NCBI GenBank assembly: GCA_030603385.1
Contig: JAUVXW010000008.1
Coordinates: 1-64,000, forward strand
DNA: 64,000 bases
Direction: 5' to 3'
DNA from: Promethearchaeota archaeon
GTDB lineage: Archaea; Asgardarchaeota; Lokiarchaeia; Sigyniarchaeales; SOKP01
Translations under genes and position numbers: made by a program
The notes under the pieces: generated by a model
What the model saw: the letters and a program-made list of their open reading frames with translations, nothing else
What the model was told of the DNA's origin: nothing
Databases searched by the model: none
Shown: positions 13,330-32,659 of the stretch, in pieces
Position numbering within the stretch: position 1 is the stretch's first letter
Layout: each line of letters starts with the position of its first letter

Positions 13330-13487
13330 AATTGTCTAGTTGAAATTGATAGTAGCGGTTTTATAACAATTTATTGGATAATAATTATAAATTTAATTCC
13401 TATAATATAAAAACCATTTTATACTTTAAAAATTACAATTTAAAGAAAAAAAACAAGACAAAATCAGGGTTCTAACATTTTAGAATA

Positions 13488-16185: not shown

Positions 16186-16852
16186 TTATTTTAATTTTTC
16201 CACTTTTCTTAGTAAATCCCTTAAGTGTAAGTTACCAATCCCGAATTTTACTCTAAATGAAAACATTAAAACCAAATTGAATTTTATTCCATTTATCTCC
16301 ATAAAATTAGAAATGAATTTCTCACTATTTTCTAATTCTAAATACATTTTTGTTACACTCACTAAGTTTCTTTCACTTCTAACCTAATTCTTTCATCGTG
16401 TTAAATAAAGTTGTTTGAGGTAATGAAGAATATAAAACTTTCCCTTCTTCATTGAATATGCCACTTCCAATTATCTCTTTATCATCAACACATTCTCTTA
16501 AGAGTTGGATTATATTTTGAAATATCGCCATAGATGTGAAATCCTTTTCTTCAACATTACTATCTCTCTTTTCTTCTAGTACATCTATACTGCTTTCATA
16601 AAGTTCCATATTTGTAAATTCGAAATCTACTGTCTGATAACCCCTAACAACAAAATTCTTGTCAACAAATGCTTGAAAGCTATGTTCACAATTCAATCCT
16701 GAAGGTATTGATACAGTAGTTAATTGTTTGCTTTGATTAATAATTTTAACTGGTAATCTCAATTTTCGACTTTCCTTACATATTGGGCATCTCGTAAGGA
16801 TTTCTTCAAAAAATCCAGCAGAATCAGTATTCATTCCATTTGGCAATGTCAT
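16186..16852 (-). pseudogene. Zn-ribbon plus roadblock-like domain protein, frameshifted near 16385
   Basis: CPIC...CEH N-terminus; IIGSGIFNEEGKVLYSSLP; after the shift continues VRSERNLVSVTKMYLELENSEKFISNFMEINGIKFNLVLMFSFRVKFGIGNLHLRDLLRKVEKLK* (stop 16186-16188). Confidence 0.65.
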
Positions 16853-17219: not shown

Positions 17220-18041
17220 ATGAAGTTAATGATAATCATGGATAATTATCAAAATTCTAAGGAAAACCCACTAGCAATGGAAATGCTAGGTATTGGTTTA
17301 GTTGAAATTTCACAAATAGATATAGAAGCTAAATTTAATGTGCTATTCCAGAAAGGAATAGGGGTACCACTTATTCAAAATATTATTGAATTATATAAAA
17401 AAGAAATTATTCATAAAAAGCAGGGGAATTCGATAATTCCCTTAGAAAAATTCACGATCTTTATTCACTATTTTGAAAATCACAATCATAATATATTAGT
17501 TATAATTTATATGGAAAAAAAAGATAGTTCAGTAAATTTTTCTAAGTTATATTTCTTATCGAGAAAAATAAATAGGAAATTTCAGTTAAATGAACCTGTC
17601 TCAAATATAATAGAAGATTTTGATACAGTTGTGGAAGTTCCCAGAACAGATGGGATCATAGCAATTTTTATTATAGGTTCAACAGGAAGTCCATATATAT
17701 CTAAAATTAATAAGGATAGATCTGAAATCGCAGATCATGAAGTTCACATAGGGGGTTTCATTTCTGCTTTATTATCATTTTCAAACACGATTATTGGAGA
17801 AGAAACTGGAGCAAAATTAAAAGAAATTAACTTTGGTAATCAACAATTCTATGTTATATCGAAGAGCAACGTGATTTTTGCTTTTTTGGTCGAAAACATG
17901 AACTCATTAATTCAAAGATACATGTACTTACTTGCTGACGAATTCCTCTACCAATTTAAGAATCGTATAAAAGACTTTAACGGGGATATAACCCCATTCA
18001 ACTGTTTTGAAGAAAAAATTAATCAATATTTTATAATATAA
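17220..18041 (+). CDS. Longin-domain protein (probably tandem longin-like)
   Basis: C-terminal IIAIFIIGSTGSPYI..., IGGFISALLSFS, LKEINFG, ADEF...F.....FNGDITPF..FEE: typical Asgard longin pattern. Confidence 0.75.
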   Translation: MKLMIIMDNYQNSKENPLAMEMLGIGLVEISQIDIEAKFNVLFQKGIGVPLIQNIIELYKKEIIHKKQGNSIIPLEKFTIFIHYFENHNHNILVIIYMEKKDSSVNFSKLYFLSRKINRKFQLNEPVSNIIEDFDTVVEVPRTDGIIAIFIIGSTGSPYISKINKDRSEIADHEVHIGGFISALLSFSNTIIGEETGAKLKEINFGNQQFYVISKSNVIFAFLVENMNSLIQRYMYLLADEFLYQFKNRIKDFNGDITPFNCFEEKINQYFII

Positions 18042-18059
18042 AAAAGAGGTATAAAGAAA

Positions 18060-18596
18060 ATGATTCAAGACCAGGAATATAAAGATATAAATCAAGTTTC
18101 CATCCTTATTTTTCAAATTGGATGGGAACAATTTGTTATTGACCTTCTTGATGTTAAAGAAATAATTCAAGCAGGACAAATAAGAAAATTGCCAAAAAGC
18201 TTAGATTACATAGATGGAATTTACAATTACAGAGGAGAGATAATACACGTCGTTAATTTGAAAAAGAAATTAAACTTGAATGAATACATGCTATATCGTT
18301 CTAAGAACTCCTCTACAGAAGAAGAAAATTACAGTAACACAAAGAGGTACATAATTATTCTAAAAGTGGATAATAACCTTATTGGATTTTATGTTAATCG
18401 CATCATAAACATTGATCACATCGATGTCAGCGAAATTATAGGACTAAGTCCAATATTTCAAACAAGTGTTGCTATGGAATACATAAAAGGAGTCATAAAT
18501 TTTAAAGAAAGACCAAGAATCATGCTTGATTTAGGCAAGATTCTTTACGAAGTTGAGAAATTTAAAATCCAACAAGATTTGTCATCTTTGACATAA
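18060..18596 (+). CDS. cheW: Chemotaxis coupling protein CheW
   Basis: VKEII, LP....YIDGIYNYRGEIIHVVNL, IGFYVNRI, YIKGV, IMLDL. Confidence 0.9.
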   Translation: MIQDQEYKDINQVSILIFQIGWEQFVIDLLDVKEIIQAGQIRKLPKSLDYIDGIYNYRGEIIHVVNLKKKLNLNEYMLYRSKNSSTEEENYSNTKRYIIILKVDNNLIGFYVNRIINIDHIDVSEIIGLSPIFQTSVAMEYIKGVINFKERPRIMLDLGKILYEVEKFKIQQDLSSLT

Positions 18597-18630
18597 AAAT
18601 AAATTTAAAATAAAAAATGGAGTTGATTAA

Positions 18631-19026
18631 ATGACAAACGAAAAACGTTCAGTATTGATTGTGGATGACGCCCAATTTACACGGAATATGCTAAAGAACA
18701 TCATTAGCAAGATTGAATTAATCGAAGTTATTGGTGAAGCTGCTAATGGTGTTGAGGCAATCTCCTTGTATAAAAAATTAAATCCTGATTTGGTTACTAT
18801 GGATTTAGTTATGCCAGAAAAGGGGGGTATTGAAGCAACAGAAGAGATCTTAAAAATTAATCCGAAAGCATTAATTGTAGTAGTATCAGCATTAGGACAA
18901 GAAGCTTTAGTCCTTGAAGCAGCAAAGAAGGGAGCAAAAGATTTTATTCAAAAACCTTTCAAGACTGAACAAATACTTGAGGTAATGGATCGTATACTAA
19001 AGAATAAGAAAGCTGTTAAAAAATAA
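18631..19026 (+). CDS. cheY: Response regulator CheY
   Basis: IVDDA, PDLVTMDLVMP (phospho-Asp), VVSA, FIQKPF; stand-alone receiver between cheW and cheA. Confidence 0.95.
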   Translation: MTNEKRSVLIVDDAQFTRNMLKNIISKIELIEVIGEAANGVEAISLYKKLNPDLVTMDLVMPEKGGIEATEEILKINPKALIVVVSALGQEALVLEAAKKGAKDFIQKPFKTEQILEVMDRILKNKKAVKK

Positions 19027-19054
19027 ATAGTAAATTAAATAATGGGGTGATTAA

Positions 19055-21139
19055 GTGGCATCTAACGACGATATTAAGCTTTTTATAAGTGAAGCAGAAG
19101 ATCTTATTCAAAAGACTGAGGATGAGATTCTTAATTTAGAAGAGAATCCAGAAAATCCTAAACCAATTCAGGCACTTTTTTTTACTTTTCACACGCTTAA
19201 AGGCCTTACAGCTATGGCTGGATTTGAAAACCTTTCAAAATTTTGTCATCACTTTGAAACCTTTTTAGATCATACTAAAGATAAAAAAGTATCAGCGAAA
19301 AAGCGTACAAACTTTATTGATATGCTATTTGAAAGTTTAGATGTGCTTCGTAATTTCATAAAAAAAGTAAAAAAAGGAGATTTAACAGATATTGATGATA
19401 GGTTTGTTGATGAAATAAAAGGAAGTTTCGATAATTTTGAAGCAGAATTCGAAATAACTTTTATCCAACCAATTTCTATAGATGAAATTACGAAAATATT
19501 AAGCAATAAGCAAAAAAAACCTTACAAAATATACATCCGCTTAGAAGATACATGCGTATTCAAAAAAGTAAGATTATTTATCATTTTTCGAGCCTTGAAT
19601 GGAATTGGTCGAATTTGTTGGACTAATCCAGCTCCGGAATCTTTAGAAAAAACAATTTTGAAGAATGAATTTGAAATCTTTTATATTAGTCAAAAAAATA
19701 AACCTGAAATTTCTCAAGTTTTAGACGAGATTTTAGAAATTGAGAATATAGTTGTTTCAACATTAAAACCTCAGGAATTTAAAAGCATAATTGCAGATCT
19801 TAAGGAAAAATGGGAGAATGAACAAGCAGAAACAGCGAGCCAAGAAATTGAGGAAGAAAGCATATATGAAGAGGTATTAATTGATGAAGGTCTTGAGCGA
19901 GTTAGTAATATTGTAGAAGATTACTCGGATAAAAGCGTTAAAATTACAAGTGTAAAAGTAAACATTGAAAATATAGAGGAATTAATGAATTATTTTGGAG
20001 AACTGGTGATAATGAAAAATCATATCAGCCAACTTTTAAAAGATAAACATGATAGAGCAATAAATAGGCTTTTTGATAAAATGGACAAACCCTTTTTAGA
20101 TATTCAAGAAATACTTTTTAAACTGAAGTTGGTTAGAGTTGAATCAACTTTTAGAAAGTATAAAAGGCTTGTTCGAGATGTAGCAAACGAAACAGGTAAA
20201 AAATTAAGACTGATTTTACAAGGAACAAATGTAGAGATTGACAGAAAGATATTAGAAGAACTAAATTCTCCTTTCGTTCATTTAATACGAAATGCTATTT
20301 CTCATGGCATTGAATTACCAAAAGAAAGAAAGAGAAAAGGTAAGAATGAACTAGGAATTTTAAGGTTAAAAACATACAGAAAAGCAGGTTCTATCTATAT
20401 TGAAGTACAAGATGATGGGGCGGGTATAAATTATGACAAAATCAAACAGAAAATCGTTAAGAAGGGTTACTATGATCGTGAAGAAGTTAAAGAATTAACT
20501 AATGAAGCTTTGAATAAATTTATTATAATGCCCGGATTTTCAACTTTATCTGATGCTGATATAATTTCAGGAAGAGGAATGGGACTGGCTATAGTTGCTG
20601 AGAAGATAAAAGAATTAGGAGGGGATTTTCTTATTGAATCGCAAAAAGATACTGGAACTAAAATTACTTTGGTAGTTCCTTTTACAAAGGCAATACTAAG
20701 AGCACAATTATTACAAGTTTCAGAGGATTTATTTGCTATTCCAACTGAGAATATTAAACAAATATATTTCTTCAATCAATATAAAATAGAATACGTAGAA
20801 GGCAAACAATATTATAAAATAGATTCAAAACTAATACCTGTAATTTTCTTAGACCAACACTTAAGAATGGTTGATCTAATTGATACAAATTCTCATAAAA
20901 AAATAGCTGTATGGTGCCAAAAAGATGAGGATAATTCTGCTATACTTGTTGCAGATAAACAACTTCAACAATTAGATGTAGTTGTGAAGCCGTTTACATC
21001 AAGTTATTCTGATTCTCGTGATATTTTGGGATCTACAATTACTGGAGAAGGTTCAATTTGTCTCATCCTAGATGTATTGAACATTATATCAAGACAGTCA
21101 TCTGAATATGAAATATCTTTAATAAATAAAATAAATTAA
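19055..21139 (+). CDS. cheA: Chemotaxis histidine kinase CheA
   Basis: Hpt FHTLKG, P2-like region, dimerisation GELVI, HLIRNAISHGIE, DDGAG, PGFST, SGRGMGL, C-terminal CheW-like P5. Confidence 0.96.
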   Translation: MASNDDIKLFISEAEDLIQKTEDEILNLEENPENPKPIQALFFTFHTLKGLTAMAGFENLSKFCHHFETFLDHTKDKKVSAKKRTNFIDMLFESLDVLRNFIKKVKKGDLTDIDDRFVDEIKGSFDNFEAEFEITFIQPISIDEITKILSNKQKKPYKIYIRLEDTCVFKKVRLFIIFRALNGIGRICWTNPAPESLEKTILKNEFEIFYISQKNKPEISQVLDEILEIENIVVSTLKPQEFKSIIADLKEKWENEQAETASQEIEEESIYEEVLIDEGLERVSNIVEDYSDKSVKITSVKVNIENIEELMNYFGELVIMKNHISQLLKDKHDRAINRLFDKMDKPFLDIQEILFKLKLVRVESTFRKYKRLVRDVANETGKKLRLILQGTNVEIDRKILEELNSPFVHLIRNAISHGIELPKERKRKGKNELGILRLKTYRKAGSIYIEVQDDGAGINYDKIKQKIVKKGYYDREEVKELTNEALNKFIIMPGFSTLSDADIISGRGMGLAIVAEKIKELGGDFLIESQKDTGTKITLVVPFTKAILRAQLLQVSEDLFAIPTENIKQIYFFNQYKIEYVEGKQYYKIDSKLIPVIFLDQHLRMVDLIDTNSHKKIAVWCQKDEDNSAILVADKQLQQLDVVVKPFTSSYSDSRDILGSTITGEGSICLILDVLNIISRQSSEYEISLINKIN

Positions 21140-21202
21140 ATTTTTTTTTAAAAAATAAATAAAAAATTTCACTGAATTAATAAAAATTTGGAGGAAAAAG
21201 AA

Positions 21203-23212
21203 ATGGGTTTTAAGAAGGTTAACCAAGACGAATTAAAAACAAATGGTGGTCCAAGTTTTCTCGGTATGCCTATAAGAGAAGTAGGAAAGATAGTACAAAC
21301 TAAAAAGAGAGAGAAAAAAATTGATTCAAGTTCACTTGGCTCAATCTCAGAGATATTGATACTTAATGAAGAATTTTTAGAATATCAATTTCATGACAAT
21401 GGGAAAAGGAAAGCTTTAGCAGGCTATGGAAACATAGTAGTTTTTAACAACTCACTTAAAGATAGAATTTGGGATACTTTTTTAAAATTTACAGGAACTC
21501 AATTTGATAATCAGGATTCAGAAAAAGGTATGCATTTGGTAATTTTTGAACCCAATTCAAATAAAATTTTGAAATATGAAATTGTAAATTCAGAAATATT
21601 ACCTGATTTAGTAACTGTAAATGAAAGTATAGAAAATTTGAACCAAGACATTAAAAATGTAAAGAATAGTGATTTTGAGGAAGAAAACACAATAAATGAT
21701 AATCAAATAAATCATATGTTGCTATTAGGAATAGAAAATAAAGTAAAATTTTCTATATCAGTAGAAAATGTTTCTTCCACAATTCTAGAAAATGTAAAAC
21801 TAAAAAAACAATTCTCAAATAATTTCTATGATTTAGATTTTAAAGGTTCATTGAGTAAAGACATTGAAATTACTAACAATTACATTGAATACCCTGTTAA
21901 GAATCTAAATCCCGGAGAGAAAGTAGAAATAATTCTTCTTGCGAACATATTTCCAAAAAAGAAAGAAAATATCAAGACTGGGAGAATAGAAGTATCATTT
22001 AATTTGAAGAATCAAACTATTTCAGAAGTAGAAATCAACCATTTCTCTGCTTATTCTCATGCTATGCATGCTATTAGAAAAACAGAGAAAGAATTTGCTC
22101 CTAATCAATGGGATTGTTCTTTAGTATTCGGAAATCATAGCGATTTTAAGATGAAATTAAATTCAATTCTAATTTTAGATAAAACTAAAAAGAATAAACT
22201 ATTAGAACTTGATTTTAGTGATAAAGTGGTAATGATGGCTCCAGGAGAGAGCTATGAAACAGAGCATTTTGATTATCAAGATGAAGGAGAACCAACTTTT
22301 TCAAGAAAAGTAGATTATTCAGTAGATTACAAAGTTGAGAAAAATTCTATGATTACAGTTCAAGTTGAAGATAATATGTTTAAAGTTGCTAATGCGATTA
22401 TCAAAAAGAAAATTGCTGAACGGGAAATTAAGTCATTTGAAGAATCAAAAGTTAATACAGAGTTCATAGTGAATAATCGAGGCACCATGCCAATAAAGGG
22501 AATTATTGCTAAAGAAAGAATACCTGCAGACTTTTTACCACCAAGGGAAGTCTCAAATTTTAAATTCCTAAATTCTTCTGGGGAATTAAAACTTGAGGAT
22601 ATATATTTAAGAATTAGTCCTGATGATGACGATCCAACACACGAGCACGTTTTAGAATTGAATGTTAATTTGGAAACTAATCACGGGAGTACTCTAATAG
22701 GAGTAGATGACTTTTTAGAAGTTAAATACCCTTTAACTGCTGTAACTCCAAATTATGAAAATCATTATGAGTTTCCATTAGAGATACAATCTTATTATTC
22801 GAAATTTTTAGAGTCTGAGCTAGAGGAATATTATGTAATCACTAATAATATCGCTGATATGGAAAAATCCTCTCTAAAAGTTACTCATAAACGTCGTAAA
22901 ATAATGATAGGAAAGGAAATCTTCCCTGGAAGAAGCAGCAATGAGTTTGCAATTTATATCACTGCAAAAAATGGTTCAAACATAAAATTATCAGATGTGA
23001 GTGTCACTGATACATTTCCAGATTCATTTGAATTAGTTTCTTCAAATATTGACCATAAACTTAGTAAAGTTGATAAGTCAGGAGAGCGTAGAATATCTTT
23101 TAGTCTTGATATTTTACAACCATATCAAGAAAGAGAGATAATGTACTATTTAAAAAACATTGCAGGAAAGGAGATTAGATTTTCAGAATTAGAATCATTT
23201 TTTATTGGTTAA
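21203..23212 (+). CDS. Cytoplasmic multi-beta-sandwich (Ig-like/DUF11-like) protein of unknown function
   Basis: Repeated N.S...L..V.V.D/E..P..F and L.PGE patterns; no signal peptide or TM; GGAGG at 21190 supports ATG 21203. Confidence 0.65.
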   Translation: MGFKKVNQDELKTNGGPSFLGMPIREVGKIVQTKKREKKIDSSSLGSISEILILNEEFLEYQFHDNGKRKALAGYGNIVVFNNSLKDRIWDTFLKFTGTQFDNQDSEKGMHLVIFEPNSNKILKYEIVNSEILPDLVTVNESIENLNQDIKNVKNSDFEEENTINDNQINHMLLLGIENKVKFSISVENVSSTILENVKLKKQFSNNFYDLDFKGSLSKDIEITNNYIEYPVKNLNPGEKVEIILLANIFPKKKENIKTGRIEVSFNLKNQTISEVEINHFSAYSHAMHAIRKTEKEFAPNQWDCSLVFGNHSDFKMKLNSILILDKTKKNKLLELDFSDKVVMMAPGESYETEHFDYQDEGEPTFSRKVDYSVDYKVEKNSMITVQVEDNMFKVANAIIKKKIAEREIKSFEESKVNTEFIVNNRGTMPIKGIIAKERIPADFLPPREVSNFKFLNSSGELKLEDIYLRISPDDDDPTHEHVLELNVNLETNHGSTLIGVDDFLEVKYPLTAVTPNYENHYEFPLEIQSYYSKFLESELEEYYVITNNIADMEKSSLKVTHKRRKIMIGKEIFPGRSSNEFAIYITAKNGSNIKLSDVSVTDTFPDSFELVSSNIDHKLSKVDKSGERRISFSLDILQPYQEREIMYYLKNIAGKEIRFSELESFFIG

Positions 23213-23257
23213 ATTAAATTATTTAAAAAAAAAGAAGAAAAAACTGGAGGAAAAATA

Positions 23258-24109
23258 ATGAATTTACAGTTTTATGAAACAATACAAGATAAGTCAAAAA
23301 AATATTTGACATATCTAATTGACCAGATACTACCAAAATTCACAATCGGTGAATTTAAGTATTTTTTAGAAGATTTAACAAATAATACCACTAAAACTAG
23401 TAAAGGAACTAAGGGACAAAAGACTAAATCAACAGAGGAATTTATTAAAATCGGAGATGATGGTGGAAAATTTGCAGAATTATCAAAATTAGATGAAAGC
23501 CAAAGAAAAATACTATTTCAAATTTTCATTAGTAGGGAAGTAAATGACAAAATGGCAGTAAAATGGCGTTTTTATCAATATATAAAATATCACTTAGGCC
23601 TGAATATAAAAACTGTAAAGGTTAATAGGGCATCTAAACATTTTGTTGATTTCATTATTGAAACAGATGAAAAAGAAATAATATTTGTTTCATGCCATGA
23701 TATTTTGGAATTAAATAGATTTAAAGAGGTTTTAAATCAAACAGCTGAGTTTGCTAAGAAACAAAATTTATCCCCTAATAGAATCATTTTTTCTGCTTGT
23801 AAATCATTTCGAAACATACCCATTGAAGAATCATTCAAAATCGGCAATACAGAGATAACTCCAGAGTTGTGGATCGAATGGATTGAAGAAAATCTCCCTT
23901 ATGATAGAGAGGATCTTTTAATAGTCAATAACTCAGAGTTAAAGTTAGCAGGATTTAACTTCACAAGTACAGAAGATTTACTTAATTACATATACCATAG
24001 TTCAAATGGTGGTCAAATTTCAATTTTTAAACAATCAGATTTTTTTACTGAAGCCTCTGATAATGAAGCTGAAATAGAATTAGTCTGGAAAGGAATTATG
24101 ATAAAATAA
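23258..24109 (+). CDS. Hypothetical protein in che cluster
   Basis: 283-aa ORF with GGAGG upstream, co-oriented within the cluster. Confidence 0.75.
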   Translation: MNLQFYETIQDKSKKYLTYLIDQILPKFTIGEFKYFLEDLTNNTTKTSKGTKGQKTKSTEEFIKIGDDGGKFAELSKLDESQRKILFQIFISREVNDKMAVKWRFYQYIKYHLGLNIKTVKVNRASKHFVDFIIETDEKEIIFVSCHDILELNRFKEVLNQTAEFAKKQNLSPNRIIFSACKSFRNIPIEESFKIGNTEITPELWIEWIEENLPYDREDLLIVNNSELKLAGFNFTSTEDLLNYIYHSSNGGQISIFKQSDFFTEASDNEAEIELVWKGIMIK

Positions 24110-24141
24110 TATACAATATGAAAAGATAAAGGGTAATAATA

Positions 24142-26121
24142 ATGATAGAAAGTGAATATGAAAATTTAGAATATGAAGAAAATATAACCGCTGTCATTTT
24201 AAAAGTTCAAGATGAGAAATACCTTATCGAAGTTGAAAAAGTTAAAGAGATATATGTACCTGGAGAATCTATAATTCCAGTACCATTATCAGAAAAATCA
24301 ATTGTAGGAGTTATTAACATCAGGGGAGAAATTTATTCAATTATCTCATTAAAGCATAATATCTATGAAGATAGTGTAGATTATGCCTTAAATGACTATT
24401 CAAGGATTTTACTCTTAGAATGGGGAGACTTAAATATTGCCTTACTAGTAGACTCTGTAATCGGTGTAAGAGAATTTCCAATTTCAATTTTTAAACAGCA
24501 AGGTACAATTGTAAAAACTAATATAGATTTTAAATTTATAAAATTAACAGGTGTTTTTCAAGATGAACCACTTATTCTTTTAGATTTAGGTGCTTTAATC
24601 CAACCTTATACTAAGACTTTCGAAAGAAAAATAGAAAAGAAAACTGAAACAATCCCAATAGTCCCTGAAAAACCAAAAGTTGTACCTAAAAAAGCTAAAA
24701 AGCCTAAAGAGCCTGAAATAAGTCATATAGAATCTACGGTCATTATCCCACAATCACCTAAAATGCCAAAATTAACAAAGATTCCTAATGATGCAAAAGT
24801 TGTATTATCAGCTGAACAACAAGATACCCTTAAAGAAATGGGGAATATAGGAACAGGAAATGCGGTTACAGCATTATCTCGATTGATCAAAAAGAAAATC
24901 GATGTAACTCTTACAGATGTAGGAATTATATCTTTTGATCAACTAGTTGATCAATTTGGAGGACCTAAGGAGCGTGTTTGTGGAATTTTTTGTCATATAG
25001 ATGAGCCTTCGCAATCGACCATCTTGAACATATTTGATATGAAACCTTTAATGAGTCTAATCGCATCTTTAGCAGGAAAAAAATCAAAGATAGATCCTAA
25101 TAAAGTAAAATCCAAAAAAGACCTTGATGAATTCGCAATTTCAACAATTACTGAAATGGGAAACATTATGGCGGGGCACTATGCATCTGCATTAGCAGAT
25201 TTATTAGAAACTAAATTAATGATCGATATACCAGAGTTTGCTATGAGCAATGCCGGAGAGTTAGGAGAATTTCTCTCTCAAGAACTTAAATCTATTGCTG
25301 AATTTATATTAATAATTAAAACTTCTATAAATATATCTGAATTAAAGTTAAAAGGTATTTTCTTTTTAATCCCAGACATTAAGACTTTAAATATGTTTTT
25401 CAATAAACTTGGAATTGATCATGATTTACATGTTGAAAATTTAGTGGATAATCAAGAACCTAAACTATTAGATGTTGATAAGTTGAAACTCACAGAACTT
25501 CAGAGAGATGCTTTACAAGAGGTTGGAAATATAGGCGCTGGCAACGCAGCGAACGCCTTAGCTCAAATGATTAATAAAAGAGTTGACATTAATATTCCAT
25601 CAGTAGAGATGATAGAATTAGATGACTATGCGAAGAGGATCAGTAAAAAGGATGAAAAACTTCTAGTTGCATGGAGCAATATTGTCGGAAAGACGAGAGC
25701 TACAGTTCTTACGATGTTTAATATTAAAGATGCAATTGACATAACTTCAATAATAGTTGATGATCCTGGTAAAAAGAAAATTGATTTAAGAAAAGCAATT
25801 GAAAAGGCAGATGATTTTCCAGAGCTTTATAAAAGTGCTGTCTCAGAATTGGGACACATTTTAGGAAGCCATTATGTTAGTGCAATAGGAGACCTATTAG
25901 GGATACGATTAATGACTGAACCTCCTGATATCAGTGTAGATAAACCTACAGGTTTATTTAACATATTAAAAGAAGAAATTGGGCTCTTAAAGAAGTTATC
26001 TTTAGTAATTACCACAAGTGTTATTATTAAAGATATTGAAATTGTAGGTACGTTCCTATTCATTCCAAGTCTCGATACTCTACAAAATCTTTTAGATGCC
26101 TTATTAAATTTCTACTCTTAA
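24142..26121 (+). CDS. CheW-CheC-CheC fusion protein
   Basis: N-terminal CheW (VGVINIRGEI, ALLVDSVIGV), Pro/Lys linker, CheC motifs DTLKEMGNIG, TITEMGNIM, DALQEVGNIG, AVSELGHIL. Confidence 0.9.
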   Translation: MIESEYENLEYEENITAVILKVQDEKYLIEVEKVKEIYVPGESIIPVPLSEKSIVGVINIRGEIYSIISLKHNIYEDSVDYALNDYSRILLLEWGDLNIALLVDSVIGVREFPISIFKQQGTIVKTNIDFKFIKLTGVFQDEPLILLDLGALIQPYTKTFERKIEKKTETIPIVPEKPKVVPKKAKKPKEPEISHIESTVIIPQSPKMPKLTKIPNDAKVVLSAEQQDTLKEMGNIGTGNAVTALSRLIKKKIDVTLTDVGIISFDQLVDQFGGPKERVCGIFCHIDEPSQSTILNIFDMKPLMSLIASLAGKKSKIDPNKVKSKKDLDEFAISTITEMGNIMAGHYASALADLLETKLMIDIPEFAMSNAGELGEFLSQELKSIAEFILIIKTSINISELKLKGIFFLIPDIKTLNMFFNKLGIDHDLHVENLVDNQEPKLLDVDKLKLTELQRDALQEVGNIGAGNAANALAQMINKRVDINIPSVEMIELDDYAKRISKKDEKLLVAWSNIVGKTRATVLTMFNIKDAIDITSIIVDDPGKKKIDLRKAIEKADDFPELYKSAVSELGHILGSHYVSAIGDLLGIRLMTEPPDISVDKPTGLFNILKEEIGLLKKLSLVITTSVIIKDIEIVGTFLFIPSLDTLQNLLDALLNFYS

Positions 26122-26183
26122 ATTTATTCTTTTCTAAAAATATATTTAATATATTTTTTTTTTTAATTTTAAGAAAATTTATT

Positions 26184-26196
26184 GAAACTTTTAATA
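26184..26196 (+). promoter_or_regulatory. Putative BRE/TATA promoter for the second half of the che cluster
   Basis: GAAACTTTTAATA about 35 nt before ATG 26231, preceded by a T-run (about 26154-26164) that could terminate the upstream unit; similar AAACTTT(T/A)A motifs precede other genes (about 676, 8893, 31274). Confidence 0.4.
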
Positions 26197-26230
26197 AGTA
26201 TTTTCAAGCCTAAAAAAAAATGAACGAATT

Positions 26231-26785
26231 ATGTTAAAAACTGGCTATTATGATTATATATATAAAGTAGATGGAGAGAAAATAAAATTAAAACCAGAAA
26301 AGATTTTTGATGCTTCAGGAGTATATTTAATCGTAGATAAGGAGTTAAAACTCATATGGATTTGGTCGGGCAGTCATTCTCGTTTATTTCATAGATATAT
26401 GGCTGCGAATTGGGCCGGGAAATTAAAAACTAAAAAAAAATTCTATAATTTCAAGTATGAAGTAATTAAACAAGGGCTAGAACCCTCTGAATTCAGGATA
26501 ATTTATAAAGAAATCAAAGAAAATAGAACGGATTTAACATATCCAGGTCAATCGAGAAAGGATTCAATTAAAAGTAAACCGTTAGAGGAATATGTCTCAA
26601 GAACTTCGACTACTCGAATTAAAACAATGGATTTGCTTTCAGATAGCATTGTAATATCCAAATCTGATAAATCTAGAATAAAAAAAATATTAGTTGAAAT
26701 AAAGGAAATGCAAAGCCACATCAAATATTCTATTGAACATATTCAACAACGTTTTACTGTAATTGAAAAAATATTAGGAAGATAG
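26231..26785 (+). CDS. Single-domain gelsolin-like protein with C-terminal coiled coil
   Basis: FDASGVYLIVD....IWIWSGSHS....R..A...A......VIKQGLEPSEF is the gelsolin-repeat pattern. Confidence 0.75.
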   Translation: MLKTGYYDYIYKVDGEKIKLKPEKIFDASGVYLIVDKELKLIWIWSGSHSRLFHRYMAANWAGKLKTKKKFYNFKYEVIKQGLEPSEFRIIYKEIKENRTDLTYPGQSRKDSIKSKPLEEYVSRTSTTRIKTMDLLSDSIVISKSDKSRIKKILVEIKEMQSHIKYSIEHIQQRFTVIEKILGR

Positions 26786-27828
26786 TGAGTTCAAAATTGA
26801 TCAAAATTGAAAATATTCAAATGGATGGAGATTATTATTCTTTACTGCTTGAATATTTGAGCAATAAAACAGGATTAAATTTTGAATATTATCGTAGGAA
26901 TTTTGTGGAGAGAAGATTAAAAGCAAGAATGATTCGTGTAAATTGTAGCACTCTTCATTCTTATTATTATTATGTTAAGGGTAATATCCTTGAGATTGAG
27001 AAATTCTTAGATAGTTTTAACATTAATTATTCTTGTTTTTTTAGAAATTGGGAAGTTTTTCAACAATTTGAAAATTTCTTTTTAAAATGTTTAGACTATA
27101 AAAAAAAAGACATTCTTACTAATTTAAAACCAAAAAGTAAAAAGGGTTCTATAAAGAAATCTAGAGACTCGTTAAAAAATATAGAGAATTCAGAAAATAG
27201 AAGTTCATATAGAAAATTAATGACTATAAGATCTCAAAATGCGCTTGAATTTTCTGAAAAAACATCTTTATATAGAAAAATTAATGGTACTTCAAGATCG
27301 AAGGGAATTGTAAATATCTGGTCTTGTCCTTGTGCTTCTGGTGAAGAACCCTATTCGATTGCAATAATTTTAGATAATTTAAAAAAACAGATACCTGAAT
27401 TTCCTCAATTTAAGATTATCGCATCAGATATAGATAAAGATGCTATTAATAAAGCACACATTGGACTTTATAATGAAAATGTCATGCAAGAAATTTCAAG
27501 ATTCAACGAAGGGAATTATTTTATAATAGCTGAAAATAGATTTGGTAATAGATACTTAATCAATGAAGATGTTAAGAGATATGTTGAATTTATTGAGGAA
27601 GATATCACAAATGGACATAAAAAAACCAAGAAATATGATATAATATTTTGTCGATATCTTTTAATTTATATAAGTCGAGAGGCACGAAATAACTTCTTGG
27701 ATATTATTGAAAAACAATTAAATCCTGGTGGGTTATTAATTTTAGGTAAAACTGAAACCCTATTTAATTCATACAACACACTGAAATTAATTGACTCTCG
27801 TAATCATATTTATTTAAAAATCAATTAA
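26785..27828 (+). CDS. cheR: Chemotaxis methyltransferase CheR (with basic insertion)
   Basis: TGLNF..Y.....RRL..R, FFRN, IWSCPCASGEEPYSIA, ASDID, DIIFCRY, GGLLILGKTETL. Confidence 0.93.
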   Translation: MSSKLIKIENIQMDGDYYSLLLEYLSNKTGLNFEYYRRNFVERRLKARMIRVNCSTLHSYYYYVKGNILEIEKFLDSFNINYSCFFRNWEVFQQFENFFLKCLDYKKKDILTNLKPKSKKGSIKKSRDSLKNIENSENRSSYRKLMTIRSQNALEFSEKTSLYRKINGTSRSKGIVNIWSCPCASGEEPYSIAIILDNLKKQIPEFPQFKIIASDIDKDAINKAHIGLYNENVMQEISRFNEGNYFIIAENRFGNRYLINEDVKRYVEFIEEDITNGHKKTKKYDIIFCRYLLIYISREARNNFLDIIEKQLNPGGLLILGKTETLFNSYNTLKLIDSRNHIYLKIN

Positions 27829-27846
27829 AGATGAATATTTTAGTAA

Positions 27847-28992
27847 ATGTCAATCAAAGTATTACTTGCCGAGGATTCCGCATATCAAAGAAAAGTTATT
27901 GCTGAAATGATTACATCTAATGAGGAAATTGAAGTCATAGATGTTGCTAAAAACGGAAGAGAGGCAATTCAGAAGATTGGAGAGCATAATCCTGATGTAA
28001 TTTTATTAGATCTTATAATGCCTGAAGTCGATGGATTATCTGTTCTCAAATTCCTTTCAGAACATTATCCAATTCCGACAATTGTTTTTACAGGTCTTAA
28101 ACTTGAATCTTTGGATGATTCTGTTCAAGCACTACTTTTGGGTGCTTTTGACTTTATCATAAAACCAAGTGGCTATTGGGCAGAGGAATTTCCTAAATTT
28201 AAAGAAAAGCTGATTTCTAGCATTCTATATGCTGGTAAAATAAAAAAAACTTATGAAAAACGTAATACGCTAATAAAAGAATCAATTGATACTCAATTCA
28301 ATTTGGATATTGGTAAAAAGCAAAAAGTTACTAAAAAGAGTTTAAAACCAATAACAGTTGAAGTTCCGAAAATAACTTCATTAGATATAAAAAAATTTAA
28401 ATCTAATATTATAGTAATAGGGACTAGTACTGGAGGCCCTAGAACCCTAAAATCTATTCTGAAAAAGATTCCAAAAGATTTTCCTAGTCCTATTTTAATG
28501 GTGCAGCATCTAGATGCCTTTTTTATGAAGCAACTTGCTAAGTCATTAAATGACGTCTGTGAAATTGAAATCAAAATCCCCGTAAATGGTGAAAAAATTC
28601 AATCTGGAAAAGTATACCTTAGCCCCGGAGCTAATCATATGCAAGTCGTTTTGCGAAATAATATACCTTGCATCAAAATTTTTAAAGGGAAACCTGTAAA
28701 TTTTTGTATGCCATCCGTAGATGTATTATTTTTTTCAACGGCAGAAGTTTATAAACAACATACGATGGGTATACTTTTAACAGGATTAGGGAATGACGGC
28801 GCTGCGGGTCTAGATGCTATTAAATCAGCTAAAGGAAACACAATCGTCGAATCTGAAGAAACATGCGTCGTATATGGTATGCCAAAAGCGGCTGTGAAAA
28901 TAGGTGCTGCTAAACAAGTTCTCCCGAGCTATAAAATCTGTCAGGAAATTACCCGATTCGCTAGGAAATTTTCTATTGAACTTAACAACTAA
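27847..28992 (+). CDS. cheB: Chemotaxis methylesterase CheB (REC + esterase)
   Basis: REC (AEDS, DLIMP, KP); catalytic GTSTGGP, VQHL, LTGLGNDG, VYGMP. Confidence 0.95.
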   Translation: MSIKVLLAEDSAYQRKVIAEMITSNEEIEVIDVAKNGREAIQKIGEHNPDVILLDLIMPEVDGLSVLKFLSEHYPIPTIVFTGLKLESLDDSVQALLLGAFDFIIKPSGYWAEEFPKFKEKLISSILYAGKIKKTYEKRNTLIKESIDTQFNLDIGKKQKVTKKSLKPITVEVPKITSLDIKKFKSNIIVIGTSTGGPRTLKSILKKIPKDFPSPILMVQHLDAFFMKQLAKSLNDVCEIEIKIPVNGEKIQSGKVYLSPGANHMQVVLRNNIPCIKIFKGKPVNFCMPSVDVLFFSTAEVYKQHTMGILLTGLGNDGAAGLDAIKSAKGNTIVESEETCVVYGMPKAAVKIGAAKQVLPSYKICQEITRFARKFSIELNN

Positions 28993-29011
28993 CTAAATAG
29001 GTAGTTTGAAA

Positions 29012-29560
29012 ATGATCGAGGACACCCAAATAGGTAAAATTGTAGATATAGACAAAAAAGGTGTTATTAATTTACCTATAGGTCATTTTGTTATTGTAAA
29101 TAGTAAACATAGATTAAGTAATTTATATCCAAAACTCTCTATTTATGGATTAGGTTCATGTATAGCTTTAATTCTCTGTGATTATGTTCATAATATTTGT
29201 GGAATGTCTCATATTTTGCTTCCCAAAACTACAAAGAAAATAATAAAATATCCTCATAAGTTTGCTAATTTGTCTGCTAAGCTCTTAATGCAAGAATTAA
29301 TAAATCATGGTGCTAAGAGAGATAATATAAAGGCAATTATCGTAGGAGGTTCAAGGATCTTTGATTTAGATGATAATATTATGGGAGTTGATAATATAGG
29401 ATCCATTAAAGAAGAATTGAATAAATTGAAAATAGAAATTATTAAAGAAGATACAGGTGGATCTAAAGGGAGAATTGTTATTTTTGATTCTAAAGATTTT
29501 TCCTTATATTTTAAATCAACTGGTCAAAACGATTTCAATAAATTTACAAATTCAAAATAA
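29012..29560 (+). CDS. cheD: Receptor glutamine deamidase CheD
   Basis: GLGSCIA, GMSHILLP, KFA, AIIVGG, EDTGGSKGR. Confidence 0.93.
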   Translation: MIEDTQIGKIVDIDKKGVINLPIGHFVIVNSKHRLSNLYPKLSIYGLGSCIALILCDYVHNICGMSHILLPKTTKKIIKYPHKFANLSAKLLMQELINHGAKRDNIKAIIVGGSRIFDLDDNIMGVDNIGSIKEELNKLKIEIIKEDTGGSKGRIVIFDSKDFSLYFKSTGQNDFNKFTNSK

Positions 29561-29592
29561 AAAAAATTAGAAAATGAAAAGAGAAACTAATA

Positions 29593-30267
29593 ATGAAAAG
29601 AAATAATAATAACGATAAGCAACCGGGTGAGTTTAAACTAACCCCAGAACAAATAGATACGTTAAAGGAACTAGGAAATATTGGTTCCGGACATGCAATT
29701 ACGGCCCTTTCAAAATTACTAAACAATGAAATAGAAGTTTCCCTAACATCTGCCGATATTATTCCTTTTTGGAAAGTTCCTGAATTGTTCGATACTCCTA
29801 ATGTTGAAGTATTTGGGATCTATTCTAAGATTCCATTCAATTCAGATTTATCAATAATTCAAATATTTACTAAAGAATCACTTGTTAATTTAATTAATCT
29901 CCTTAACACTAATGATAAGGTTTTCATTGAAAATATAAGAAATATCGAGGATCTAGATGATTTTTCTATTAGTATAATAACTGAAATTGGTAATATATTA
30001 ACTGGACATTATGCAAGTGCTTTGGCAGATATACTATCAACTCAACTAATTCCTAATGTTCCAATCGTAGCACTAGATACATTAAACGCGATGTTAAATG
30101 GTATCATTGCTAAATATTCTCAACTATCAGATTATTTAGTACTAATAAAAACTAAAATAGCACTACCAGAAATTAAACTGAATTGTATAATGTGTTTTAT
30201 TCCTTGTATGAATATACTAAAAAATCTATTTAAAATTTTAAATATAAAATATAATATGAATCTATAA
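29593..30267 (+). CDS. cheC: CheY-P phosphatase CheC
   Basis: DTLKELGNIGSGHAITALSKL and SIITEIGNILTGHY. Confidence 0.93.
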   Translation: MKRNNNNDKQPGEFKLTPEQIDTLKELGNIGSGHAITALSKLLNNEIEVSLTSADIIPFWKVPELFDTPNVEVFGIYSKIPFNSDLSIIQIFTKESLVNLINLLNTNDKVFIENIRNIEDLDDFSISIITEIGNILTGHYASALADILSTQLIPNVPIVALDTLNAMLNGIIAKYSQLSDYLVLIKTKIALPEIKLNCIMCFIPCMNILKNLFKILNIKYNMNL

Positions 30268-30273
30268 TAAGAA

Positions 30274-31233
30274 ATGTCAAGATTAACCATATTAGAAGAA
30301 TTGCTTTCCAATCTATTAAATGAGGCAAAAGACCTTTCCGCAGCTCTAGTTGTTGACTTAGATGGTTTGATTATTGCTAAAAAGTCAAATGGTGGGTTTG
30401 ATGAAGAATTGATTGGTGCTATTATGGGCATTCTTGAACAAACAATAAGTAGGATAAAAAAGTATACAGAAACATCATTTGGAAGTGGAACACTCAACAC
30501 TAATGAATTTCAATTATTTTATGTAGAATTAAGTAAAGTCACTCCCGCAATCTTTGTCATGGTTGGAGATCAATACTCAAACATTAATCAATTTATTCCT
30601 TATGCATATATAGTGACGGAAAAAATTTCATTAATTTTAAATAATCGAGAAACCCCTGTAAATCTCCCAAAATTAAGTAATACTGCAGAAATAATATTTA
30701 ATCCAGACCCTAATGTCCATTATGGCAATAATAATATAAATAAGATAGTTGTTGTTGGATCTGAGGCAGTTGGGAAAAGTACATTAGTTGAAATGTATAG
30801 GAAGGGAAAATTTGAAGAAATTTATAAACCAACTATTGGAATTTCTATTAAAGAGAAAAAATTACATATTTCCAAAGACTACAATTTATGCCTATATCTC
30901 CTTGACTTAGGAGGTCTAAAAAGTTTTGCTAAAATCCGCAAATTTTATTATAATTATTCAAATGCGGTTCTCATTTTGTTTGATTATGCTAAAATGGAAA
31001 CTTTCAATAAAATTTCTGATTGGATTGAAGAATCGCGCCATTTTATCAAAGATAAATCAATCCCAATTGTTCTCATAGGAAACAAAATCGATCTAGCCGA
31101 AAATCGTGAGGATTTTAAGATTCAAGCCCAAAATCTAGCAGACCAATATAATATTCCATTTTTTGAAACATCAGCATATACTGGAGAGGGAATTGATGAG
31201 TTGTTTACTTACTTAATATCATCCTTACTTTAA
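30274..31233 (+). CDS. Roadblock/LC7 - Rab-like small GTPase fusion
   Basis: N-terminal AALVVDLDGLIIA roadblock; G1 GSEAVGKST, G2 PTIG, G3 DLGGL, G4 NKID, G5 ETSA. Confidence 0.92.
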   Translation: MSRLTILEELLSNLLNEAKDLSAALVVDLDGLIIAKKSNGGFDEELIGAIMGILEQTISRIKKYTETSFGSGTLNTNEFQLFYVELSKVTPAIFVMVGDQYSNINQFIPYAYIVTEKISLILNNRETPVNLPKLSNTAEIIFNPDPNVHYGNNNINKIVVVGSEAVGKSTLVEMYRKGKFEEIYKPTIGISIKEKKLHISKDYNLCLYLLDLGGLKSFAKIRKFYYNYSNAVLILFDYAKMETFNKISDWIEESRHFIKDKSIPIVLIGNKIDLAENREDFKIQAQNLADQYNIPFFETSAYTGEGIDELFTYLISSLL

Positions 31234-31294
31234 CATTTAAATAAGTATAAATTACAGTGCACTACTATTTATTAAACTTTTAAGGGAGATTTAG

Positions 31295-32659
31295 TTGTCA
31301 ATCGATGTTATAATTGCTGATGATTCTGCGTATTTGAGAAAAAATATTGCTGAGATTCTTAAAGGCAGCGAATTGGTAAATATAATAGAGTTTGCTAAAG
31401 ATGGAGAAGAAGCCATTAAGTTTGTCAAGAAATACAGCCCAGATGTTTTAGTGTTAGATTTATTAATGCCTAAAATGAATGGATTAGATGCTTTCAAAGT
31501 GATCATGGAAGAATGTCCAACCCCAACAGTTATTCTCTCAGCTATTAGTCCCAAAAACCTTGATTCATCTATTCAAGCACTTTTAATGGGGGCATTTGAT
31601 TATATTATAAAACCGGGAGGCATAGGTGCTAAAGATCTACCACGATTCCGTGAAGAATTACTAGCTAAAGTGCTTATAGCTTCTCAATCACAAATAAAAA
31701 AAATTTTTAAAAAGGAAGATGGAGACTACGGAAAGGGTAAATCACTTCGACAAGAAATAATTGATCAAATCTTTGATTTTGGTCAATACCTAAATACACT
31801 AATACCCATTCAAGAAGCTAAGGAAAACCAAGAAGTAATAGACATTGGTAAAACAAAAGAAGTGCAGAAAGAGGCAACAGGTAAATCAGAAATAAAGCAA
31901 ATTGAAAAGATAAATGAACTGAGCATAAAGAAATCCATTAAGCATAAAGAATCAGCAAAACTATCTAAAATAAATGTTGCTAAACCTACTTTAAAAACTT
32001 TATTACAAAAATCTCTACCAAGTTTACAAAAAAGAAAAGAACCAGTTTACACTCCTAACCTTACTCCTATTAAAGGAGTTTCTATCTCATCAAATATAAT
32101 TGTTATTGGTGCTAGCGTTGGTGGGCCTCGAACTATAACTACTATATTAAAAGAAATACCTAGAAATTTCCCTGCTCCAATTTTAATCGTTCAACATTTA
32201 TCAGCACACTTTATGGAAGCTTTTGCTGATAATTTAGATTTGGAATGTAAATTAAAAATTAAGGTTGCGACTAATGGAGAGTATCTTAAACCTGGAGTAG
32301 TCTATATTGCTCCCGGAGAAAAACATATGGAAATTTCTGTAGATGATAAAAGACCTTGCATAAAAATATATAAGGGTACACCAGTTAAATTTTGTATGCC
32401 TTCCATAGATATCTTATTCTTTTCAGCAACAAGAGTTTACAAGGATCGAACCATGGGGGTATTATTAACCGGTATGGGCTCTGATGGTGTTGAAGGTTTA
32501 GGCTCTATTAAAAAAGTAGGTGGAAAAACAATCACAGAATCGATGGAGACATGTATTTTATTTGCTATGCCAAAATTCGCCGCAGAAAAGGGTTATGCTG
32601 ATCAAATTCTGCCAAATTACTCCATCTACCCGGAGATTATTAAATTCTGCAGAAAATGA
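31295..32659 (+). CDS. cheB: Second CheB methylesterase with long linker
   Basis: REC (ADDS, DLLMP, KP); GASVGGP, VQHL, LTGMGSDG. Confidence 0.93.
   Translation: MSIDVIIADDSAYLRKNIAEILKGSELVNIIEFAKDGEEAIKFVKKYSPDVLVLDLLMPKMNGLDAFKVIMEECPTPTVILSAISPKNLDSSIQALLMGAFDYIIKPGGIGAKDLPRFREELLAKVLIASQSQIKKIFKKEDGDYGKGKSLRQEIIDQIFDFGQYLNTLIPIQEAKENQEVIDIGKTKEVQKEATGKSEIKQIEKINELSIKKSIKHKESAKLSKINVAKPTLKTLLQKSLPSLQKRKEPVYTPNLTPIKGVSISSNIIVIGASVGGPRTITTILKEIPRNFPAPILIVQHLSAHFMEAFADNLDLECKLKIKVATNGEYLKPGVVYIAPGEKHMEISVDDKRPCIKIYKGTPVKFCMPSIDILFFSATRVYKDRTMGVLLTGMGSDGVEGLGSIKKVGGKTITESMETCILFAMPKFAAEKGYADQILPNYSIYPEIIKFCRK

Follow-up and report, generated by a model that had tools for sequence, protein, structure and literature searches.

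Background

In archaea, chemotactic signals are passed on by phosphorylated CheY (CheY-P) through CheF and ArlCDE to the archaellum. In Myxococcus xanthus, the Che-type Frz system acts on a polarity module made up of the Ras-like GTPase MglA, the roadblock-fold GTPase-activating protein MglB and RomR-RomX (PMC9481161). Among Asgard archaea, Lokiarchaeum ossiferum, which is rich in actin and forms protrusions, has been seen to possess che genes and chemoreceptor arrays, without an output being named (PMC9834061), and the roadblock-GTPase architecture is already known in this group (Tran et al. 2024, PMC10933270). Here, we analyse a che gene cluster at positions 17220-32659 of a stretch of 64,000 nucleotides (contig JAUVXW010000008.1 of assembly GCA_030603385.1, positions 1 to 64,000; hereafter the window) from a Promethearchaeota archaeon, in which the Che genes are interleaved with genes for five other proteins: a roadblock/longin protein (g01), a DUF11 protein (g05), a PD-(D/E)xK-like protein (g06), a gelsolin-domain protein (g08) and a roadblock-GTPase (g13).

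The core of this cluster is an ordinary Bacillus/archaeal-type Che system, which is already known, and its gene neighbourhood is undescribed in the literature searched: in that library, no earlier description of Asgard che clusters with gelsolin, longin or roadblock-GTPase genes was found. By comparing the cluster across related genomes, we obtained indications that the five non-Che genes are in all likelihood functional parts of the chemosensory pathway. We give about even chances to the more specific reading that the cluster is a chemosensory operon particular to its lineage, a Lokiarchaeia-type family of Asgard archaea, and that in it these five proteins constitute an output or adaptor module that replaces the CheF-archaellum route.

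Results

Composition of the cluster

According to the open reading frame (ORF) listing and Pfam scans, the cluster consists of 14 genes, all on the plus strand and separated by gaps of -1 to 109 nt, of which nine are Che genes by Pfam and five are not. The original prediction, made from the letters of the window, had the gene content right and was off by one in its count of 13 genes with eight Che genes. Its claim that longin, gelsolin and roadblock-GTPase genes lie among the che genes is borne out by fold, profile and Pfam matches, and the two proteins that it could describe only as unknown and cytoplasmic are now recognised as a DUF11 beta-sandwich protein (g05) and a protein with a PD-(D/E)xK-like fold (g06). 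The genes are, in order:

17220..18041, plus strand: g01, two-domain roadblock/longin protein of 273 amino acids, opening the cluster (AlphaFold2 (AF2) model and fold searches)
18060..18596, plus strand: CheW (Pfam CheW 2.7e-25)
18631..19026, plus strand: CheY, a single receiver domain (Pfam Response_reg 4.5e-26)
19055..21139, plus strand: CheA, Hpt-P2-dimerisation-HATPase-CheW (all five Pfam domains above cut-off)
21203..23212, plus strand: g05, cytoplasmic DUF11 beta-sandwich protein of 669 amino acids (Pfam DUF11 7.5e-6)
23258..24109, plus strand: g06, 283 amino acids, N-terminal helices, PD-(D/E)xK-like centre and C-terminal beta domain (AF2 model; without Pfam match)
24142..26121, plus strand: CheW-CheC-CheC fusion of 659 amino acids (Pfam CheW 1.5e-20, CheC 4.3e-39 with 4 stretches)
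26231..26785, plus strand: g08, single gelsolin domain and C-terminal helix (orthologue profile against the PDB)
26785..27828, plus strand: CheR (Pfam CheR 2.2e-40, CheR_N 5.2e-11)
27847..28992, plus strand: CheB, receiver and methylesterase (Pfam CheB_methylest 3.4e-58, Response_reg 1.1e-20)
29006..29560, plus strand: CheD (Pfam CheD 7.6e-19)
29593..30267, plus strand: CheC (Pfam CheC 3.1e-19)
30274..31233, plus strand: g13, roadblock domain and Ras-superfamily GTPase (Pfam Ras 8e-39; Robl_LC7 0.005, below cut-off)
31295..32659, plus strand: second CheB, 454 amino acids with a long linker (Pfam CheB_methylest 1.3e-56, Response_reg 1.1e-19)

The CheR start and the g08 stop overlap by 1 nt. The host is a low-GC (about 29%) Promethearchaeota (Asgard) metagenome-assembled genome (MAG) of 3.89 Mb in 58 contigs, 94% complete, and its DNA recurs in cold-seep and marine-sediment metagenomes from 11 studies.

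The nine Che genes belong to a Bacillus/archaeal-type Che system, as follows from the CheA domains, CheW, the phospho-acceptor pocket of CheY (D12, D13, D58, S86 and K108, invariant in an alignment of 19 rows), a complete adaptation set by Pfam (CheR, two CheB, CheC and CheD) and the presence of methyl-accepting chemotaxis proteins (MCPs). For the latter, the genome-wide search proposed in the original prediction found two 4HB-type genes, both outside the contig of the cluster (contigs C58 and C47). Together with the array-tethered CheW-CheC-CheC phosphatase, these components form a canonical core predicted to provide sensing and adaptation. Of all proteins of the cluster, CheY has changed least (about 90% identity within the genus); across the family and genome G031 of a second family no residue varies in its alpha4-beta5-alpha5 stretch, which is still near-invariant once two CheYs of ~52% identity are added. 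The second CheB, which has ~75-80 extra linker residues between its receiver and methylesterase domains (454 versus 381 amino acids), is encoded directly 3' of the GTPase gene and is kept in genera g1 and g16. CheR is absent in G024 (locus L005) and reduced to ~50 N-terminal residues in G003 (L006) and G009 (L008), each with both CheB genes kept.

Conservation of the cluster in relatives

The evidence for linkage is comparative-genomic throughout and comes from relatives that are not independent samples. Searching the che loci of relatives by tblastn with the 14 cluster proteins, we found the order g01-CheW-CheY-CheA-g05-g06-CheWCheC2-g08 to be kept at identities between 90% and about 40%, in genera g1, g14, g15, g16 and g17 of the host family and in the second family (G031); for genera g77 and g78, orthologues of CheA, g01 and g08 share a contig and show the corresponding spacing. 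The conserved cluster therefore covers at least seven genera of one family plus a second family, in more than 20 other genomes, and on this synteny the gene arrangement is preserved far beyond chance. All five non-Che genes are kept beside che genes across genera, as the original prediction needed of its eukaryotic signature protein (ESP) genes. The flanking genes of the cluster, which encode a PAS histidine kinase, an EF-2-family GTPase, PurN and an FttA/aCPSF1-like protein, are unrelated to it; they are conserved within genus g1 and, save for one match to a multi-copy family of 157-amino-acid proteins in locus L021, were not found in the compared loci outside that genus. With flanks that differ outside genus g1, the cluster has stayed together as a unit in changing surroundings.

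Two rearranged loci are informative on which genes stay together. At the genus g15 locus (L039, G338:C2:1-16000), the five non-Che genes are kept without CheR, CheB, CheD and CheC at the locus, in the order g01-CheW-CheY-CheA-g05-g06-CheWCheC2-gelsolin-GTPase, which places the GTPase gene immediately next to the gelsolin gene. In G006, a genome assembled as a single contig, the cluster lies in two halves 1.08 Mb apart (L007, C1:352000-371900, and L038, C1:1433000-1452900), with the break falling precisely between g06 and CheW-CheC-CheC. The far half has all of its genes, those for gelsolin and GTPase included, and the CheA half has kept g05 and g06, has lost g01 and retains only the last 39 residues of CheW; this split hints at two functional or transcriptional units. 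Measured against two close relatives, the ratio of nonsynonymous to synonymous substitution rates (dN/dS) amounts to 0.09-0.26 for the five non-Che genes and to 0.06-0.25 for the Che genes.

Co-occurrence with CheA was counted in genome draws. In the family draw of 121 genomes, g08 orthologues were found in 34 of 38 CheA-positive and 0 of 83 CheA-negative genomes, 5-7 kb from CheA wherever both lie on one contig, the split cluster of G006 excepted. In the phylum draw, g06 was present in 14/14 CheA-positive versus 0/54 CheA-negative genomes of the family. A che-linked g13 orthologue (about 320 amino acids) occurs in about 26 of the 38 CheA-positive genomes, positioned after CheC in genera g1 and g14, flanked by the two CheB genes in g16 and immediately 3' of the gelsolin gene in g15. 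The g01 orthologue adjoins CheW-CheY-CheA in most CheA-positive genomes of the family. Taking synteny, co-occurrence and dN/dS together, the five non-Che genes appear to be integral, selected members of the operon.

Beyond these two families, two remote members of the g06 family lie in divergent che clusters of the type MCP-CheW-CheY-CheB-CheA-CheD-[DUF11 protein]-[g06-like]-[CheW-CheC-CheC], and related arrangements occur in families f2 and f3; CheW-CheC-CheC is conserved 3' of g06 in all cluster types. Since the g05-g06-CheWCheC2 trio also follows CheA-CheD in these two more divergent clusters, it would represent an older conserved module, and the che-linked g01, g08 and g13 would be additions of the host family and G031. 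In the divergent cluster L033, the 154-amino-acid gene after CheW-CheC-CheC has no detectable similarity to the gelsolin profile, and we therefore do not extend gelsolin, longin and GTPase membership to the divergent cluster types. Matches resembling g01 and g08 in families f2, f3 and f24 were rejected as orthologues, being weak paralogues on other contigs. The NCBI submitter labels of loci L041-L065, which belong to one GTDB family, range over Hermodarchaeota, Hodarchaeota, Helarchaeota, Odinarchaeota and Bathyarchaeota and are unfit for taxonomy.

Absence of the known archaeal output

Two conditions under which the original prediction would have lost its ground, an archaellum with CheF encoded elsewhere in the genome and ESP genes not conserved beside che genes in relatives, were looked for, and neither was found. 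Within the limits set by MAG incompleteness, which apply to all absences reported here, CheF (PF04283) gave 0 matches in the whole 3.89 Mb assembly, and archaellin (PF01917) and T2SSF (PF00482) gave none either, with control genomes matched in each case; T2SSE gave one marginal partial match of 25.7 bits. T2SSF was likewise found in none of five che-positive relatives, among which are two 100%-complete genomes and a genome assembled as a single contig. Of 301 Asgard genomes drawn evenly across the phylum, 46 have CheA; CheF was found in none of the 301 and archaellin scored above cut-off in two, neither of which is a che-positive genome of the host family. On these counts, the canonical archaeal output is missing in che-positive Asgard archaea generally.

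The host genome encodes four actin-family proteins, one of them Lokiactin-like, and several canonical gelsolins outside the cluster. The best Lokiactin-like gene lies on contig C18, at 12777-13889. Another actin-family gene (Pfam Actin 7e-44) is found on the contig of the cluster, ~87 kb downstream (G000:C30:119965-121062, minus strand).

The three proteins with folds of actin or GTPase regulators

For g01, Pfam gave no match and sequence and profile searches against the PDB gave nothing significant, so that only fold comparison was informative. An AF2 model built from 27 homologues (predicted local distance difference test (pLDDT) 83.5, predicted template modelling score (pTM) 0.81) shows two beta-beta-alpha-beta-beta-beta-alpha domains. 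With Foldseek, the full-length model matched multi-longin RabGEF subunits best (Fuzzy-Inturned, CPLANE, MON1-CCZ1 and BLOC-3), and its single domains matched roadblock, LAMTOR and VAMP7 longins at E about 1e-4. A second, independent aligner (VIA) placed the C-domain at Z 12-13 to Sec22/VAMP7 longins and MK-D1 Roadblock3, at Z 11.9 to MglB and at Z 11.5 to a Lokiarchaeota Roadblock-Longin protein, and the N-domain at Z about 10 to longins of the Lst4/FLCN/SMCR8/DENN type. On these models, g01 is a longin/roadblock-fold protein and a candidate GTPase regulator. Two top-tier g01 orthologues (G280:C52:39964-40773 and G326:C103:28780-29589) lie in genomes in which no orthologous CheA was found, and are either remnants of a lost cluster or the result of an assembly gap.

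The g13 protein combines a roadblock domain (residues ~1-130) with a Ras-superfamily GTPase domain (~155-317), for which Ral, Rab and Ras are tied as best PDB matches at E about 1e-24. In eight orthologues GxxxxGKS/T, T187, DLGG, NKxD and ETSA are conserved, so that G1, G2, G4 and G5 are intact and G3 reads DLGG[L/I/A/K], with the switch-II Gln replaced; no C-terminal Cys for prenylation or lipidation was present in this alignment. The description as a roadblock-Rab-like GTPase in the original prediction therefore needs to be widened to a roadblock-Ras-family GTPase, given the tied matches and the missing Gln and Cys. Both g01 and g13 have close full-length paralogues outside che clusters, also in che-negative genomes, and duplication is the probable source of the che-linked copies. 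As a rule, the GTPase genes of strain MK-D1 do not share an operon with genes for roadblock or longin proteins (PMC10933270), which makes the operon described here unusual.

The g08 protein joins a gelsolin domain (residues ~10-97) through a variable linker to a C-terminal helix (~140-184), which is conserved. As a single sequence it matched the Asgard gelsolin 7c2f at 2.8e-4 in a PDB phmmer search, and a profile of 14 orthologues matched 7c2f at 2.2e-6, 2DGel3 at 3.2e-5, Heimdall 2DGel at 6.9e-5 and villin at 1.8e-4. The S-R-L-F-H-R-Y residues of the long helix of the gelsolin domain are invariant among orthologues. By profile, g08 is assigned a gelsolin-family domain, and an action on actin is predicted. 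A look-up in the Atlas returned only unnamed Promethearchaeota clusters, with scores under 0.9.

The two proteins directly downstream of CheA

The likely start of g05 is the ATG at 21203 rather than the TTG at 21188, and its Atlas neighbours are DUF11 clusters of Promethearchaeota. Its gene is always located directly 3' of CheA or CheA-CheD. The N-terminus, MGFKK[IV]xxxEL, is near-invariant and followed by a variable linker, with M1, G2, F3, L11, G21 and P23 invariant in 17 orthologues of identity down to 24%. Down to 23% identity, all proteins of the g05 type start with M-G-F-[KI]-K-[IVL]; residues of the pattern polar-polar-x-acidic-hydrophobic come next and lead into a variable linker. The MGF[KI]K N-terminus is also kept in the two more divergent che clusters. 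In bacterial flagellar switches, FliM/FliY bind CheY-P through an N-terminal peptide, LSQxEIDALL. A complex prediction for CheY with g05 residues 1-45 scored 0.00; it was run without controls and counts neither way. Some g05 homologues carry Lys/Glu-rich coiled-coil insertions of 300-400 residues between beta-sandwich domains (L022:4183-7206, minus strand; L012:780-3926, minus strand; L033:6905-9985, plus strand), with weak Pfam matches to ERM_helical and KIF21A-like coiled coils.

For g06, neither Pfam nor PDB sequence and profile searches gave a match (nothing significant in the latter). Its AF2 model has a pLDDT of 71, and VIA aligned it to Card1 at Z 7.4 and to AF1548 at Z 7.3, and chains of the restriction-endonuclease fold are numerous among the matches; a Z of about 7 is weak and consistent, but within the range of common arrangements. 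D131 is invariant and the second-motif positions vary (for example E-K-E versus G-G-D), so that the catalytic D...(D/E)xK motif is not conserved among the g06 orthologues. The model weakly but consistently suggests a degenerate PD-(D/E)xK-like fold. An exhaustive profile search of 1.84 billion proteins gave 61 representatives of the family, and among 25 genome records with g06 there was no named cultured organism.

Other genes and candidates in the window

A gene for a 157-amino-acid protein (16379-16852, minus strand), transcribed divergently from the cluster, was considered as a fifteenth member and rejected, as it is one of a multi-copy family of which che-negative genomes hold copies at 50-60% identity. 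In the protein, the N-terminus resembles a zinc ribbon (CxxC...CxH) and the C-terminal half a roadblock domain; the family gives 6-8 matches per genome, che-negative relatives included, and in G298 (L021) two copies flank the che cluster. The possibility of an inserted defence island was unsupported, since a PADLOC scan of the five non-Che proteins gave no meaningful defence-system match. The window also contains an ORF of 2235 amino acids at 45054-51761 (plus strand).

Discussion

The reading that we prefer, an output or adaptor module in place of the CheF-archaellum route, can be given the following form. CheY-P would dock on the invariant N-terminal peptide of g05, and g05 and g06 together would be the older, conserved adaptor. 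In the host family, the signal would then pass to the gelsolin-domain protein g08, presumably acting on Lokiactin filaments, and also to the roadblock-longin protein g01 and the roadblock-GTPase g13, as a switch similar to MglB/MglA or to Rag/Ragulator. What receptor input might bias in this way is not a rotary filament but the dynamics of actin-based protrusions or the polarity of the cell. This fullest form, in which the Che relay is wired directly to actin and GTPase regulators (g08 on Lokiactin, g01/g13 as a switch) and steers protrusions or polarity, is a tentative one, which we regard as possible and rather doubtful. The original prediction of a route from Che to the cytoskeleton has fared accordingly in two parts: the functional linkage is well supported by synteny, co-occurrence and dN/dS, whereas the steering of protrusions or crawling stays an inference.

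Several observations weigh against this proposal. The support for coupling consists of genomic context and fold assignment, and the co-occurrence is partly explicable by gain or loss of the locus as a block. The folds of g01 and g13 by themselves say little about a che-specific role, given their paralogues in che-negative genomes. The GTPase gene is reduced to a 53-residue remnant in the G024 cluster and absent from the G003 cluster, and the gelsolin domain of g08 is divergent, its single sequence scoring 13.6 bits with Pfam Gelsolin, below the cut-off of 21 bits. The likeness of the g05 N-terminus to the CheY-binding peptide of FliM/FliY is our assumption, judged by eye. Finally, the genes most widely conserved beside CheA are those of the two non-ESP proteins g05 and g06, not the gelsolin, longin or GTPase genes, and for this reason the ancestral output may have been unrelated to actin.

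The strongest alternative is that the five proteins are chemosensory machinery, such as scaffolds, localisation factors or adaptation accessories, and not a cytoskeletal output; the target of the pathway would then be encoded elsewhere, and surface-protein display, cell-cell contact or gene expression might be controlled. Bacterial Che systems with non-motility outputs are well established and lend this alternative a general plausibility. It is also in line with the position of g05 and g06, which have no cytoskeletal signature, between CheA/CheD and the array-tethered CheW-CheC-CheC, with the plausibility of multi-domain beta-sandwich proteins as scaffolds, and with the suggestion of roles in cell-cell communication and interaction made for L. 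ossiferum (PMC9834061). It leaves unexplained, however, why the gelsolin, roadblock-longin and roadblock-GTPase genes are retained through rearrangements, most clearly at the genus g15 locus, where they are kept while the adaptation genes are absent. We consider this explanation unlikely, and yet the most serious of those competing with an output module.

Next in rank comes the possibility that the operon steers an unrecognised Asgard motility or surface structure, neither archaellum nor type IV pilus, with the five proteins as CheF-like adaptor or switch parts whose gelsolin, longin and GTPase folds are reused for protein binding, without action on actin. That the known markers of type IV filaments are all absent, that g05 has an invariant N-terminal peptide as a possible docking site and that L. 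ossiferum displays many uncharacterised surface assemblies (PMC9834061) would agree with such a role. No candidate structure lies beside the cluster in more than 25 loci, however, and the flanks outside the genus are unrelated, which makes this alternative quite improbable in our opinion. That the non-Che genes are uncoupled passengers, inserted once and inherited or transferred as a block with the che genes, would fit the conserved flanks within genus g1, which render the synteny partly vertical, and the patchy presence or absence of the whole locus, but has become very improbable in the face of order and membership persisting at 40-50% identity in different genomic contexts, a GTPase gene that was relocated yet stays inside the cluster, non-Che genes kept intact in both G006 halves, non-Che dN/dS as low as that of the Che genes, and g06 and g08 orthologues that were not found in any CheA-negative genome searched.

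If the five proteins are indeed an output module, the operon supplies concrete, conserved candidates for the missing Asgard chemotaxis output, three of the five having folds of eukaryotic actin or GTPase regulators. A chemotaxis mode without a rotary or retractile filament would then exist, and a mechanistic bridge from prokaryotic to eukaryotic taxis. Were the link real, small-GTPase and actin regulation would already be receptor-controlled in archaeal relatives of eukaryotes, and the operon would assign partners to Asgard GTPases and roadblock/longin proteins, which is hard to do from genome layout (PMC10933270). Should the cytoskeletal reading turn out wrong, the g05-g06-CheWCheC2 trio would still stand as a previously undescribed and widely conserved component set of Lokiarchaeial che systems, and experiments could still take the invariant MGFKK N-terminus of g05 as a specific starting point.

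Comparison with known systems

With the archaeal pathway that leads to the archaellum, the cluster shares the Che core of a P2-containing CheA, CheW, CheY, CheR, CheB, CheC, CheD and MCPs; it differs in that CheF, archaellin and T2SSF (ArlJ/PilC) were not found and five other proteins are encoded in the operon instead. The likeness to FliM/FliY is confined to a short conserved N-terminal peptide with a hydrophobic-polar-polar-x-acidic-hydrophobic pattern, the remainder of g05 consisting of DUF11 beta-sandwich repeats and not of FliM or FliN.

The Asgard gelsolins (ProGel and 2DGel; 7c2f, 7c2g/h, 7whf, 7whg) are matched by the N-terminal 95 residues of g08 at E 2.2e-6 to 7e-5. Unlike them, g08 is divergent, adds a C-terminal helix after a variable linker and was seen only inside che clusters. 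Similarly, among the described Asgard roadblock-GTPase and roadblock-longin architectures (PMC10933270; 8yqg, 9jue, 9m28, 8yl2), the former have the domain order of g13, and the solved Lokiarchaeota Roadblock-Longin protein and MK-D1 roadblocks are matched by g01; what differs here is that the GTPase and roadblock-longin genes share one operon, together with che genes.

The cluster has in common with the Frz system of Myxococcus that a relay of the Che type goes together with a small GTPase of the Ras superfamily and with roadblock-fold regulators. The parallel to MglA/MglB drawn in the original prediction holds at the level of folds, MglB matching the C-domain of g01 at Z 11.9, with the qualification that the best-listed PDB matches of g13 are eukaryotic Ras-family proteins. 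In contrast to Frz, the system has no type IV pilus or gliding genes; its GTPase and roadblock genes are located inside the che operon, a gelsolin-domain protein is included, and the GTPase is itself fused to a roadblock domain at the N-terminus and matches Ral, Rab and Ras in the PDB. By analogy, Frz-MglA/MglB may be considered the closest counterpart in logic to the Asgard operon, with components, fusion state and the gelsolin domain setting the two apart.

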